A stretch of DNA of 18,736 bases from a virus (lineage: Duplodnaviria; Heunggongvirae; Uroviricota; Caudoviricetes). The notes below the pieces were generated by a model. The model was not told the origin of the DNA and did no database searches. It saw only the letters and a list, made by a program, of their open reading frames with translations. Positions 3,309-17,628 of this stretch are shown here, in pieces (positions within the stretch are counted from its first letter, which is position 1; each line of letters begins with the position of its first letter). The position numbers were made by a program, and so were the translations under genes. The stretch lies in the IMG/VR virus record IMGVR_UViG_2609459839_000006; one strand, given 5' to 3'.

Positions 3309-3884
3309 CTACGGCAGTGCTGGCCATTCAATATCCTGTGCAGTTGACGTATCAACACGGTTCAGCAATACCCGATACTTTTTCCATGCTTCCAGCAACG
3401 AGATTTCTTCCTCCGTTGCAATTTCCAGATCTGCAGCATCCTGAAGCGGCGCAATATGCTCACTGGCTACCTGCATCAGGTTGTTTTTTGTTTCTTCCGC
3501 CTCCCGGATCCGGAACAGTTTTTCTGCTTCCGTATCCTTCACCCAGGCTGTGCCGTTCCACTTCTGAAACTCCCCTTCCGGCGATAACCAGGTAACATTT
3601 TCCGGTAACGGACCGAGTTCAGAAATAAATAACGCGTCGCCGGAAGCCACGTCATAAACCGTTTTACCCCGATGATCTTCAACGAGATGCCACGATGACT
3701 CATCACTGTTGAAAACAGCCACGAAGCCAGCCGGAATATCTGGCGGTGCAATATCGGTACTGTTTGCTGGCAGACCTGTATGAGGCGGAATATATGCATC
3801 ACCTTCACCAATAAATTCATTAGTTCCGGCCAGCAGATTATAAATTTTTATGGTCCGTGGTTGTTCACTCATTCTGAATGCCAT
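3309..3884 (-). CDS. tfaQ: tail fibre assembly protein
   Basis: 191-aa [20 protein letters not shown]...; recognised Tfa family; ATG at 3882-3884 overlaps stfQ stop (TAATG). Confidence 0.9.
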
Positions 3885-6281: not shown

Positions 6282-6692
6282 ATGGATCAGGTAGTCATTT
6301 TTAAACAAATATTTGATAAAGTTCGAAACGATTTAAACTATCAATGGTTTTATTCTGAGCTAAAACGTCACAATGTCTCACATTACATTTACTATTTAGC
6401 CACAGAGAATGTTCATATTGTATTAAAAAATGATAATACAGTGTTATTAAAGGGCCTAAAAAACATTGTGTCTGTCAAATTTTCAAAGGATAGGCATCTT
6501 ATAGAAACGACCTCTAATAAGCTGAAATCCAGAGAGATCACATTTCAGGAATACAGAAGAAACCTTGCTAAAGCAGGAGTTTTTCGGTGGGTTACAAATA
6601 TCCACGAACAAAAAAGATATTACTATACCTTTGATAATTCATTACTATTTACTGAAAGCATCCAGAAAACTACACAGATCTTACCACGCTAA
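6282..6692 (+). CDS. ydfO: DUF1398-family prophage protein
   Basis: ORF track 6267-6692; internal ATG at 6282 (MDQVVIF...) has GGAAGG at 6269-6274; TAA at 6690-6692. Confidence 0.75.
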
Positions 6693-6843
6693 ACCATAAC
6701 GTCCGGCTTCTCTCACTCCTGAGCCGGACTGCATTGGTTTAATAAAAACCATCAACAATTGTGATTTAGATATTCGGAACCATTCAAATATAACAAAACC
6801 CCGTAAAAACGAGGTTTATGGATAAATTTTATTATTGAATACA

Positions 6844-7017
6844 TCAGATTAAATTAATCTTGACATCATAGCTTTCAAGACCCGTCATTTTTTCCCGTGC
6901 GGTAAACTGAATACTGGTAACTTCTTTCCCGGTCTTTTTCTTAAGTTCAATAATTTTTTTTGTTATATATTCAGAAATATCTGCTTCTGCTTTTGTTTTT
7001 AAGTTTTCAATATTCAT
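6844..7017 (-). CDS. gnsB: GnsA/GnsB-family small protein
   Basis: Not in ORF track (under 60 aa); hand translation of minus strand gives MNIENLKTKAEADISEYITKKIIELKKKTGKEVTSIQFTAREKMTGLESYDVKINLI (57 aa); AGAGGA upstream of the ATG at 7015-7017. Confidence 0.8.
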   Translation of the reverse strand: MNIENLKTKAEADISEYITKKIIELKKKTGKEVTSIQFTAREKMTGLESYDVKINLI

Positions 7018-7188
7018 CATTTCCTCTTTTAGTCTGTTATGACTTTCCAGTTACACAGTAAGTCGATTATATGGTGCAAACGTGTAAAAGATAAGATGAA
7101 ACATCGCAATAATCAACATACGATAGTCTAAATTTTACACAAACAGACAAAGAGAATTTTCCTGAATTATCAATGCAATAGCATCAAA

Positions 7189-7344
7189 TCAACTCAAGAG
7201 CCTTATTGCTGCTTCCAGAATTTCTTCTGAAGTAACATGTCGATCCGCGGCTACATAAATGACTTTATGATCTCCGGTCAGAGATGGAAACCCTGCGGCC
7301 ATTACAGTAAGGTGTGTTTTTTCGCCATTTGGATATTCACGCAT
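7189..7344 (-). CDS. ynfN: small prophage protein YnfN (cold-shock-associated)
   Basis: ORF track 7189-7380 starts at GTG; internal ATG at 7342-7344 gives the 51-aa MREYPNGEKTHLTVMAAGFPSLTGDHKVIYVAADRHVTSEEILEAAIRLLS that I recall as YnfN; start choice uncertain. Confidence 0.6.
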   Translation of the reverse strand: MREYPNGEKTHLTVMAAGFPSLTGDHKVIYVAADRHVTSEEILEAAIRLLS

Positions 7345-7460
7345 GATGGTGTTAACTCCAGTCATCGCTGGCACTACCACTGCTGGTTCAGAGTTAAAAA
7401 AACTATGATTTTTTTCATGATGTTACCGTAGTATGTGAGTATCCATCGAATAGACACCAA

Positions 7461-7484
7461 GCAAAAAAGCTCCCGAAGGAGCCT
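7461..7484 (-). terminator. intrinsic terminator downstream of cspI
   Basis: GCTCC-CGAA-GGAGC hairpin at 7469-7482, followed on the minus strand by a T-run (plus-strand A-run 7463-7468). Confidence 0.5.
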
Positions 7485-7689
7485 TCATTTTCACTTTTTT
7501 AAATCCAACGACAGACGGCTGGCATTTAAGTATTGTGAAATATTATCAAATGTAATCATCATTGATTTACAAAAGATACATTTTGCCCCGAAAGGATTCA
7601 TGTCAGAAACATCAAAAGATGATGTTCTATACTGGGAACCATGACAACACGGGCATCTAAAGTGAATATGGTTTGTAATATTGTCTACC

Positions 7690-7902
7690 TCAAAGCGCCA
7701 CTACATGAACAGCGGCAGGACCTTTAGGTCCGTTCTCAATACCAAATTCAACTTCCTGATTCTCAGTTAATGTTTTGAAATCGTTGCTCTGAATTGCTGA
7801 GAAATGGACAAACACATCTTTGCTGCCATCTTTCGGCGTGATGAAACCAAAACCTTTTTCAGGGTTAAACCATTTCACTAAACCAGTCATTTTGTTAGAC
7901 AT
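7690..7902 (-). CDS. cspI: cold shock protein, CspA family
   Basis: 70-aa [70 protein letters not shown] with RNP1/RNP2 motifs; ATG at 7900-7902. Confidence 0.95.
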
Positions 7903-8264
7903 AATTATTACCTTTTGAAGAAATTAGCCCTTGGGCAGAATGGTCCGAAAAAAAATATCAGAGAGAAAAACCAACAAGGAAATCTCAAGAGGTACAAATA
8001 ATAAAATTATAACAATGACTGCTTCAGATAAATTTGTAACAAACCAGAACACCATTAACGCATGATTAACCACCCATAGCAAGGATTACTTTTGTAAAGA
8101 AAAACACAGCAATGAAAGAATAGCTTTATTTATTAATAAAACGTGTCATTCTGATTAAGACCTTTTATCTTACCCTTAAGATTTCAGGAATTTTGGCTCA
8201 TGGAAGAGTCCTTTTTATTTAAATTTTACATTCCGCGATGTAAATGTTCCGATTTAATATTACC

Positions 8265-10293: not shown

Positions 10294-10573
10294 AGATTGT
10301 GGTGCTTTTTGTGGGAGTCATCCACTTACGCACTTTGTTTTGCCATGCCAGCAGTTAGCTTCTGCTGTAAAACTATTCATGCAGCAAACCTGCACTTCAC
10401 CACAATGGTTAGCATACTTTTCCTGATTAAGATTTTGCCAAATATGCTAGCCATTGTTTCATGTATTGGACCTCCTTACTTTTTATTAAAGAGATCCAAT
10501 ATTCACTACTCTGTCCGTATCTCTACTCAGGCATCAGCCTTCTTCGTTATCGTATACAGACGAGCGATGAATT

Positions 10574-10789
10574 TTAATCAGTAATGATGACATTTGCTGC
10601 TGCAGGACCTTTAGCACCACTCTCTATAGAGAAGGTAACCTTTTGACCTTCAAATAAGGTTCGATAATTATCATTCTGAATCGCAGAAAAATGCACAAAC
10701 ACATCTTTACTACCATCAACAGGAGAAATAAAGCCGAAACCTTTATCAGCGTTAAACCATTTTACTAAACCAGTCATTTTATTTGACAT
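10574..10789 (-). CDS. cspB: cold shock protein, CspA family
   Basis: 71-aa [71 protein letters not shown]; ATG at 10787-10789. Confidence 0.95.
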
Positions 10790-11089
10790 TCTACATTCCT
10801 TAACTTGAGCCTTTCGGCATAAATGGTTTGCATAACAGAAACGACTTCGTACTTAATTGGAGAGACTCAAAGAAGGAATAAGTGAATAACACCTGAAATG
10901 AGAACTGCTTTAGTAAACTACTTCGTATATCGTCTGTTCTTCAAACCGACGCAATCATTAACGCATAGTTGAACATATGAAGCAATGTTTATTTTAGACA
11001 TCCAGCCATCTTCAACCCCATCAAAAAACTATAGCTTTCTTCAGGAACGTGTGTATAGTGCGCCAAGTTATCAGTATTAAGGAATTTTT

Positions 11090-15596: not shown

Positions 15597-15991
15597 ATCA
15601 GCCTTTTCTTTAAAGACATATTATCTTTGTATCATTTCTGATAGTTAACATTACAAGATATAAGTAATGGACGCACTCCCAATTAGTCTATTTAAATCGC
15701 CACGAGTTTAACTGACAACCCATGATCAATTATGAATTGCAACTATTTCTGTAGTCACTTTTGTGGGGACAGTCCACAAAACTGCCAACTTCCGCTTCTT
15801 GCTCTTAGCGGACATTAGCATAGGCTATTTACCATAACGCCTCATTACGCGCACCGCCCAGACTGACTCAGCGCGTTTCTGGCATATCCCCGGTAAAACA
15901 AGTAACAAACCACCCGAAAATGAACACCAGAAACGCGACTTAAGAATCTACCCTATGAATGGATATGCACTCAACCGAATCGATCTTGGTT

Positions 15992-16810
15992 TCAATCTTT
16001 TTTATCGGGATCAGGCTTCTTTTTAGGTAACTTCGGGGGCTTAACTTGCTGATGACTTTGCGTTCGGCGCGTAAGCCAGGGATGGTCAGCTTTAGGTTTA
16101 ACATAGTATTTTGAGCGTAAATCAATACGGGCATTATCCACTCGTTCATGGACACTCTTTTCATCATCCAGTGGTATAGGCTCCGGGCCATCAACATACT
16201 TTTCCCAGCCCAGCGCTTTCCCGTCATACAGAACGTTAATTTCACCGTCAAAGTTCTCGCATACAGTAACAACCGAATGCCTAAGTCGATATCCCCGGCC
16301 CTCACTGCGTACCTGAAACGCACTGCTTTTGTACTGGAAAGTGAGATTTTTAGACAGAACGCGCTTCGCCTGTAGGCTGAAGATATAACCCAGTTCCTCT
16401 TCAGAATGGTGCACATCAAGATGAGCATTATCAGTAGTACGAGGCGACGTAGCGAACCGGTTGTTATAGGCTTCAATAAAGGTCGGCAACCATGCATTTG
16501 CTGTTTCAATATCACTGATATTCTGAAGCCGCATTTCTTTGACCAGCCTGTCCTGTAGTGTCTGATTGGCGCGCTCTACCCGCCCTTTTGCCTGCGGGCT
16601 GTTGGCATGGATTGGCTCGATGCCCAGTGTCTTTATCGCACGAGTGAACTGGGTCAGCTCACCTTCCCGCTCTGGGTTATTTACCCTGAATATACTGTGT
16701 CTATCAGAGTAGAGAGCGAGCGGTACGCCATGATCATTAAGGTAACCCCGGAGGGTTTCCATGTAAGCCCGGGTTGCCACAGCACATATCAAGAATGGTT
16801 GCCGGTGCAC
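15992..16810 (-). pseudogene. DDE (rve/integrase-core) transposase catalytic fragment, OrfB-like, interrupted
   Basis: 272-aa ORF with ..LALYSDRHS.. and ..SPQAKGRVERANQTLQD..; GTG at 16808-16810 is immediately preceded by in-frame TGA (16811-16813); same frame is open upstream to about 17089; possibly the K-12 intK remnant (from memory). Confidence 0.6.
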
Positions 16811-16977
16811 TCACTGCGCCACGTCCTGAAAATTACCCTGATAGAAAGCCAGTATGCGCTGCATAACTTCGCTCTTCCGGCACTCGCGACAGATTATGTT
16901 TAGGCGACTGTCGTAGCGACGTATTTCTCCGTCAGGTGATGACCAGATAAGGTCCGGATCAACCACAGCAGGTTTCT

Positions 16978-17331
16978 TCACCTTTGCCCTCGAGAGTTTT
17001 TTGCGGGCGTTTTGCCAGTCCTTACGCGCCTGTTCAGAGGGGAATAACCCGTAGCCTCCATAATTGCAGGCACTAGCGCCGTGAACTTTTCACGCTTATC
17101 CCTGGTGTCGATAGCCTTCCAGCGTTCAAATATCTTCACTCGATTAACGCCAAGCGCTCGCTGATCAATCGCGCCACCTTCATATGTGACACGCTGAACA
17201 TCGATGTTCGGGCGCTCTTTCAAAGCCCAGAATGCTTCAGTGATTAATATCGTCGCCTGCTCCTGTGTCATTCCTGGTCGACATATCCAGGCATCCAGAG
17301 CCTCACGAGCCTGTTCAGGAGTGATTTTCAT
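16978..17331 (-). CDS. OrfA-like upstream ORF of the IS-like element (117 aa)
   Basis: ATG at 17329-17331, overlaps dicC 3' end by 17 nt; ends TGA 16978-16980, 18 nt after heptamer A_AAA_AAC (minus strand, 16996-17002). Confidence 0.4.
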   Translation of the reverse strand: MKITPEQAREALDAWICRPGMTQEQATILITEAFWALKERPNIDVQRVTYEGGAIDQRALGVNRVKIFERWKAIDTRDKREKFTALVPAIMEATGYSPLNRRVRTGKTPAKNSRGQR

Positions 17332-17545
17332 TGTTCAACCGCCCCGCCCGCTTCGTCTTACGATATTCATCATAAACTTTGGGATCATACTGAAGCTCCC
17401 CGCCAGATGCCTCCTGTAGACGCATCGCGCGACCTTCGGGAACTAAATCCCCTTTCCAGCTATAAAGCGAAGCCAAACGAATACCTGCTGCTTGTGCAAG
17501 TTTTGTTTTTGAACCGAAATACAAAAGAGCGTCAGTTTTAAGCAT
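17315..17545 (-). CDS. dicC: Cro-like repressor DicC
   Basis: 76-aa MLKTDALLYFGSKTKLAQAAGIRLASLYSWKGDLVPEGRAMRLQEASGG...; ATG at 17543-17545. Confidence 0.9.
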   Translation of the reverse strand: MLKTDALLYFGSKTKLAQAAGIRLASLYSWKGDLVPEGRAMRLQEASGGELQYDPKVYDEYRKTKRAGRLNNENHS

Positions 17546-17559
17546 TTAAAACACCTTTA

Positions 17560-17579
17560 TTGTTAGTCATAACTAACAA
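17560..17579. promoter_or_regulatory. operator palindrome between divergent dicC and dicA
   Basis: TTGTTAGT-CATA-ACTAACAA, perfect 8-bp inverted arms. Confidence 0.7.
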
Positions 17580-17628
17580 GATAGATGTTAACAAAAACAT
17601 AGTCAATACGATTTAGCATTAGCTAACT

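Follow-up and report, generated by a model that had tools for sequence, protein, structure and literature searches.

Insertion sequences (IS) of the IS1202 family carry a single transposase ORF of 400-500 aa in one reading frame, and are further characterized by a DDE triad, a glutamine at E+7 and 5'-TGT/ACA-3' ends (bioRxiv 10.1101/2022.12.17.520857; PMC10132070). One described member, ISEsa1, is 1609 bp long and encodes 439 aa (bioRxiv 10.1101/2022.12.17.520857; PMC10132070), and its target duplication was reported as undetectable (PMC10132070). The second described system of relevance here is the phage regulator YdaT, which has been identified by experiment as the equivalent of CII (PMC9986795). 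In the YdaT protein of CP-933P, a C-terminal tetramerisation helix is required for DNA binding, and the isolated domain of residues 1-96 is a monomer that does not bind operator DNA (PMC9986795).

The window, meaning the whole stretch of DNA that was analysed (18,736 nucleotides), is a Qin prophage sequence: flxA, dicC and dicA are present, and it matches annotated Qin loci. An earlier reading of positions 15992-17331, made from the letters alone (the sequence-only reading), had proposed an IS-like element in which OrfA and OrfB are connected by a programmed -1 frameshift and which is disabled by an in-frame TGA. The geometry behind this proposal is real, and all of its coordinates are correct in the sequence. 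On the minus strand, a 117-aa ORF occupies 16978-17331 and its start overlaps the 3' end of dicC. The heptamer AAAAAAC at 16996-17002, on the same strand, reads gcA AAA AAC in the frame of this ORF, in register as claimed, and the ORF ends 18 nt past it when the stop codon is counted. The -1 frame is open from 17089 to the TGA at 16811-16813, and a 272-aa ORF then runs from a GTG at 16810 to 15992, containing the catalytic motifs LALYSDRHS and SPQAKGRVERANQTLQD. Nevertheless, we are highly confident that the minus strand of 15992-17331 consists of four unrelated gene fragments, put side by side by two deletions in the Qin prophage. The features are as follows, in the direction of transcription of dicC.

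17315-17545, minus strand: dicC, Cro-like regulator, intact, 76-aa ORF; annotated as dicC (WP_000920568.1) in loci L001, L003 and L004.
17052-17331, minus strand: YdaT-family CII-like regulator, 5' fragment, codons 1-93 of 173; 100% identity to the intact protein, the K-12 counterpart being the pseudogene ydfX.
17052-17056, no strand: deletion junction 1, microhomology GGCTA; from three-way comparison of the window, ydaT and DUF977 and from the blastn block limits.
16978-17051, minus strand: nonsense tail of the 117-aa ORF, 24 codons plus stop; DUF977 DNA in the wrong frame, the other frame being 100% DUF977.
16811-17056, minus strand: DUF977/Ren-like gene, 3' fragment, codons 60-140 plus the native TGA at 16811-16813 (the -1 frame); from identity to WP_001151262.1.
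16996-17002, minus strand: heptamer AAAAAAC, corresponding to Lys78-Lys79 (AAA AAA C) of DUF977; phase 0 in intact genes.
16775-16814, minus strand: class I SAM-dependent DNA methyltransferase, first 13 codons (VSAPATILDMCCG); N-terminus of CE10 WP_001310834.1.
16775-16776, no strand: deletion junction 2, microhomology CA; from three-way comparison and block limits.
15992-16776, minus strand: ISEsa1-like IS1202-family (ISNCY) DDE transposase, 3' fragment, codons 178-437 plus stop; 100% identity to the ORF in locus L007.
15783-15991, minus strand: non-coding IS sequence 3' of the transposase, ending at the approximate right end of the element; from the homology limit against a copy in another context.

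The origin of this arrangement can be followed in fuller loci with the intact order, which were found in strain 0-4 (L001), WP2-S18-ESBL-08 (L004) and CE10 (L005). On the strand of dicC, these loci carry dicC, a 173-aa 'toxin YdaT family protein', a 321-aa hypothetical protein, a 140-aa DUF977 protein and a SAM methyltransferase, followed by small pseudogenes, a transposase annotated as ISNCY or as 'IS1202-like element ISEsa1 family', ydfW and flxA. By PHROG the 321-aa protein of the fuller loci is named a replication initiator O-like protein (E 1e-91), and the gene order as a whole is that of a classical lambdoid cro-cII-O-ren region. The initiator lies exactly where the sequence-only reading had expected lambdoid replication genes, and this part of that reading holds. 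When compared with L004 and L005 by blastn, the window falls into three collinear blocks of 99.6-100% identity, the first reaching 17052, the second extending from 17056 to 16772 and the third starting at 16776. These identities and breakpoints are direct observations, as are the single-ORF intact homologs of the transposase described below.

The ancestral order, which other E. coli have kept, is dicC, the ydaT-family gene, the O-like initiator, DUF977, the DNA methyltransferase, small genes, a sok/hok locus carrying the IS, and flxA. Deletion 1 (17056-17052) joined codon 93 of ydaT to codon 60 of DUF977, out of frame; about 1405 bp are lost there, comprising the 3' half of the YdaT gene, the entire O-like replication gene and DUF977 codons 1-59. 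Deletion 2 (16776/16775) fused methyltransferase codon 13 to transposase codon 177/178. Its loss is about 2.5 kb relative to CE10 and takes in what follows of the methyltransferase gene, a DUF7167 pseudogene, a hypothetical gene and the sok/hok leader, and also the left end of the IS with transposase codons 1-177. Because both junctions show microhomology, the deletions were probably microhomology-associated.

Loci with deletion 1 only were also found (L006, L007, L010, L012 and L013), in which the deletion is followed by the methyltransferase gene and then by a transposase ORF of the full 437 aa, and locus L011 has a 331-aa transposase fragment. Such intermediates bear on the question of whether the arrangement could be a misassembly of repeated prophage and IS sequences. 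In favor of a misassembly, none of the 5426 complete RefSeq E. coli genomes has the collinear structure of the window. However, an exact-protein lookup in draft and read assemblies located further carriers: the arrangement is 100% identical over 3.1 kb in three independent NCBI drafts (GCA_000601295.1, GCA_000601315.1 and GCA_001912105.1), and it is also present in two Logan read assemblies with 100% identity across both junctions. Since three draft assemblies are identical, we regard the arrangement as real and give misassembly next to no probability.

For the fragments themselves, profile searches assign the three reading frames to three unrelated families, namely YdaT/CII-like, DUF977/Ren-like and IS1202-family transposase. 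The sequence-only reading had noted that its OrfA did not look like a typical IS3 OrfA, and rightly so, as the 117-aa ORF is a fragment of a CII-like phage regulator with a tail. Over residues 1-93 of both, this ORF and the intact 173-aa YdaT-family protein are 100% identical, and they diverge completely afterwards; at the DNA level, the identity to L004 and L001 stops at 17052 (blastn). PHROG 163, 'CII-like transcriptional activator', matches the stump with E 2e-23 over profile positions 10-90 of 168 and the intact 173-aa protein with E 5.5e-40, and Pfam PF06254 (YdaT_toxin) matches the 117-aa ORF with 22.0 bits at a cutoff of 21. The stump therefore shows both marks of YdaT-family membership, the profile match and the place directly after a cro-like gene. 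With the cut after residue 93 of 173, the C-terminal tetramerisation half would be gone, by analogy with CP-933P YdaT. The domain argument is made by analogy because a PDB sequence search with the intact YdaT-family protein gave no match, the solved YdaT structures included. The stop of the 117-aa ORF overlaps a GTG (GGTGA, 16978-16981) which opens a 56-aa ORF at 16811-16981 in the DUF977 frame. Some gene callers report it as a DUF977 protein (L015), the likeliest explanation being an artefact of gene calling on the truncated DUF977 gene.

Could the fusion ORF be functional, either as a stump with the POU domain of a YdaT/CII-like protein acting in a regulatory or dominant-negative way, or as a chimera of YdaT-N and DUF977-C made by slippage? 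The 117-aa ORF is exactly conserved in many assemblies (40 collection blocks), but this is expected anyway from clonal inheritance, as the strains are near-identical and the flanks 100% identical. As in the intact gene, the ATG of the ORF overlaps with the 3' end of dicC. Judged by analogy with residues 1-96 of CP-933P YdaT (PMC9986795), the stump has the entire N-terminal domain, yet it is this isolated domain that is monomeric and does not bind the operator (PMC9986795). Moreover, K-12 carries another tail on the same stump, which RefSeq calls a pseudogene, and no stimulatory structure follows the heptamer. We therefore consider a functional fusion ORF very improbable. There is an equally slim chance for the more specific ideas that the stump is a dicC-coupled POU-like protein interfering with the CII-like regulators of co-resident lambdoid prophages, that slippage yields a chimera of YdaT-N and Ren-like-C, or that GGAGGCTA is a deletion hotspot; the last idea arises because the window and K-12 alleles break within the same few nucleotides. 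Under the preferred reading, that of unrelated fragments joined by deletion, the fragments would have lost their functions.

The -1 frame, which the sequence-only reading took for the beginning of OrfB, belongs to the second fragment. From 17056 on, it is 100% identical to residues 60-140 of WP_001151262.1 and has the same stop position. Pfam DUF977 matches it over profile positions 59-134 of 134 (E 1.4e-15), with the TGA at the profile end. An intact DUF977 relative spans positions 1-134, so the match here is a partial one to a piece without a start codon in context. This piece is 99.6% identical, as a single piece, to the DUF977 loci of E. coli W, IAI1, 042 and CE10, and the intact gene matches PHROG 142, 'Ren-like exclusion protein' (E 1.6e-47). 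The stop codon sits identically in the intact gene; the TGA at 16811-16813 is DUF977's own stop and not a disabling mutation, contrary to what had been claimed. Nor does the frame run into the catalytic region, as everything upstream of the TGA is the DUF977 3' end and transposase homology starts only at 16776.

The heptamer has an equally ordinary origin. In all four intact DUF977 genes examined it is found at gene nucleotide 232 in phase 0, where it is read as the plain codons AAA AAA C. It appears as A AAA AAC in register with the 117-aa ORF only because the fusion of ydaT to DUF977 by deletion 1 is out by one frame, and any A-rich Lys-Lys pair appears in register one third of the time. In the 18.7-kb window, AAAAAAC occurs 13 times compared to 8.1 +/- 2.8 expected, and a count of 13 is attained in 15 of 200 shuffles. 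Folding of the 96 nt downstream of the heptamer, when compared with shuffled sequence, gave no significant structure (z = -0.74). The heptamer at 16996-17002 is no recoding signal.

The third fragment is short. The translation of 16814-16775 equals the N-terminus of the 118-aa CE10 methyltransferase WP_001310834.1 (PHROG 954, DNA methyltransferase), and the GTG start of this gene overlaps with the stop of DUF977. Read in another frame, the same methyltransferase 5' end makes up codons 1-11 of the 272-aa ORF.

The fourth fragment agrees with the claim of a decayed rve/DDE transposase remnant, which was borne out at 15992-16776. Residues 13-272 of the 272-aa ORF are 100% identical to residues 178-437 of the 437-aa transposase ORF in L007. 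NCBIfam ISNCY_2 (NF033594) matches the fragment with E 5e-66 and 223 bits over profile positions 171-365 of 368, a score under the cutoff of 250 bits only through truncation, as the full-length relative in L007 (100% identical) scores 456 bits. Profiles of IS481, IS21 and IS3 match the 272-aa ORF far more weakly. The suggested resemblance of the core to IS481 and IS21 thus stands insofar as such matches exist, but ISNCY_2 is the stronger match, and the IS3 profile NF033516 gives 14.2 bits against a cutoff of 160. In the 437-aa numbering, the catalytic residues are D140, D201 and E244, plus Q251. The fragment keeps D201, E244 and Q251 (LYSDRHS, GRVERANQTLQ) and is without D140 and the HTH domains; the glutamine seven residues after the glutamate, as in the IS1202 family, is therefore present here as E244/Q251, and D140 is seen only in intact relatives. 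RefSeq labels the relatives as 'IS1202-like element ISEsa1 family transposase, incomplete'.

The intact homologs show how such a gene is organized. In L007 the full-length relative at 6541-7854 is one ORF with no internal stop, with N-terminal HTH_28, HTH_29 and HTH_32 plus rve_3, and plasmid copies are annotated as 446-aa ISEsa1-family transposases. Intact homologs are thus a single unshifted ORF of 437-446 aa, and the combination of one ORF and an N-terminal HTH part expected of the IS1202 family is found in the relatives, the HTH part being the one missing from the window. No in-phase slippery site was found at any frame junction of the intact transposase gene, the only A-run being in the last four codons. 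The window fragment is the C-terminal 60% of a protein normally made from one ORF. With neither the HTH domain for DNA binding nor the first Asp of the catalytic triad, and with the left end of the IS gone, we infer that it would be unable to transpose.

With respect to the IS ends, the homology to L019, an Enterobacter plasmid with a different context, stops at L007 8059, which equals window 15787. The right end is therefore placed at about 15783-15787, to within a few nucleotides, from one independent-context copy. In L007 the left end begins with TGTTAACACC at position 6467, i.e. with 5'-TGT. The left-end sequence of the relatives is absent from the entire window with up to 3 mismatches allowed. 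The terminal inverted repeats and target-site duplications predicted around 15600-15990 and 17330-17560 were not found in 15600-17600; we account for the missing inverted repeat by the deletion of the left end. A search for the right inverted repeat, by aligning the left end with the reverse complement of the right end and by the 1609-bp length, gave nothing convincing.

In the fuller Qin relatives, a full-length Rfam match to the sok/hok leader (RF01794, 104 bits; L007 6296-6467, a region missing from the window) ends exactly at the IS start, and therefore the ISEsa1-like element sits at the start of a hok gene. On plasmids, the hok remnant is named 'DUF5431 family protein' by PGAP. A hok coding remnant downstream of the IS (15726-15821) was considered and rejected, as it had no Pfam support even at E <= 10 and no Rfam match. 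An Rfam search of the region gave no match either.

Taking the fragments together, we return to the frameshifted IS3/IS1-type element, with the 117-aa ORF as OrfA, the rve core as OrfB, slippage at A AAA AAC and later inactivation by the TGA. The heptamer in register, the overlapping -1 frame and the downstream rve core are all real, and the core has weak IS3 and IS481 profile matches. Against these, the supposed OrfA is a piece of a CII-like phage regulator, the overlap frame belongs to DUF977 and ends at the stop of that gene, and the core belongs to the IS1202 family with its single ORF (bioRxiv 10.1101/2022.12.17.520857). In addition, the IS3 profile match is far under its cutoff, the heptamer frequency is at chance level with no structure downstream, and the flanking inverted repeats are missing. 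The sequence-only reading had itself named three outcomes that would speak against it: ORFs hitting unrelated families, a heptamer not conserved in intact homologs, and homologs encoding one unshifted frame. All three were found: the profile search assigned the ORFs to the unrelated families given above, the heptamer is not conserved in the transposase gene and is made of plain codons in the DUF977 genes, and the intact transposase is one unshifted ORF. We regard the frameshifted element as extremely improbable. Almost certainly, there is no recoding at 15992-17331, and the region is inert debris of the early-gene region of a cryptic lambdoid prophage, Qin, with no programmed frameshift; no observation was made that speaks against this reading.

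Some further observations were made in the window and in related plasmids. The same ISEsa1-like element exists on IncF and IncI plasmids, as found in pEnt261 of Enterobacter asburiae (L017) and pSA20064858.1 of Salmonella (L018). Beside the plasmid IS, both flxA and ydfV are annotated in L018 and only ydfV in L017, and an identity of about 98% to the query continues past the IS to the query end. The annotations of flxA and ydfV next to the IS and the identity extending past it suggest that plasmids acquired a segment of Qin-type prophage DNA along with the IS. Between dicA and dicC, an 18-nt inverted repeat with 83% complementarity and a 4-nt spacer is found at 17550-17589, and this repeat is probably an operator of the DicA/DicC switch. 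Rfam also reports RNA features elsewhere in the window, as listed below; cspI and cspB are prophage cold-shock genes.

3343-3541, minus strand (first listed of the set 3343-3541, 7663-8048 and 10558-10950): IS009 sRNA, Rfam, 221 bits, above the gathering score.
7663-8048 and 10558-10950, minus strand: two cspA-type thermoregulator leaders upstream of cspI and cspB, Rfam, above the gathering scores.

Prophage decay at this locus is already known, as RefSeq annotates the pieces as ydfX, DUF977 family protein, 'ISNCY family transposase, incomplete' and ydfW, and no new biology is implied. What the analysis provides is a base-accurate origin of two K-12 pseudogenes, ydfX from the CII-like regulator and ydfW from the ISEsa1-like IS1202-family transposase, and a reconstruction of the ancestral Qin early region, which would have consisted of cro, cII-like, O-like, Ren-like and methyltransferase genes and a sok/hok locus interrupted by the IS. 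It also gives a caution, since deletions in cryptic prophages can mimic the OrfA/OrfB layout with a slippery heptamer by joining unrelated gene fragments.

When compared to the Qin prophage of K-12, where ydfX and ydfW lie between dicC and flxA, the window represents the same locus with flanks of 99.9-100% identity. The K-12 ydfX, annotated 'missing C-terminus', is the YdaT-family stump seen here, with its cut at practically the same nucleotide, and ydfW corresponds to the final 49 codons of the transposase ORF shared with the window (15992-16141). The difference is that K-12 is without window 17050-16177, so that the DUF977 fragment and the methyltransferase stub are both missing there and the transposase is reduced to 61 codons. 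Its stump is joined straight to window 16176, which places a different tail on the same stump. The K-12-type junction, window 17051 to 16176, reads GGAGGCTAC followed directly by CACTGG (L003 3525-3575; window 16174-16184), and its left breakpoint is within 1-3 nt of the YdaT/DUF977 junction GGCTA of the window. As GGAGGCTA(T) in ydaT is similar to GGAGCCTATAC inside the IS, microhomology between the two may explain the repeated use of this breakpoint. The K-12 allele either descended from a deletion-1 ancestor or broke there independently.

Among the known mobile elements, ISEsa1 and the IS1202 family (formerly the ISNCY IS1202 group) share with the fragment the NF033594 match, the second Asp, the Glu and the Gln at E+7, whereas the window copy is a dead 3' fragment with no left end, no HTH and no D140. 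The likeness to the OrfA/OrfB elements of IS3 and IS1 is one of superficial geometry only, in that an upstream ORF has an A-rich heptamer close to its end and an rve-type core lies downstream. It differs in that the upstream ORF and the overlap frame are phage genes with a native stop before the core, and in that the transposase family concerned is without frameshifting and no conserved slippery site or stimulatory structure exists here. A further related system is the lambdoid cro-cII-O-P-ren module of the Rac/CP-933P ydaS-ydaT type (PMC9986795), to which the ancestral dicC, YdaT, O-like and DUF977 genes correspond; relative to this module, the window has lost all of the O-like gene, together with the C-terminal half of the cII-like one and the 5' portion of the Ren-like one.
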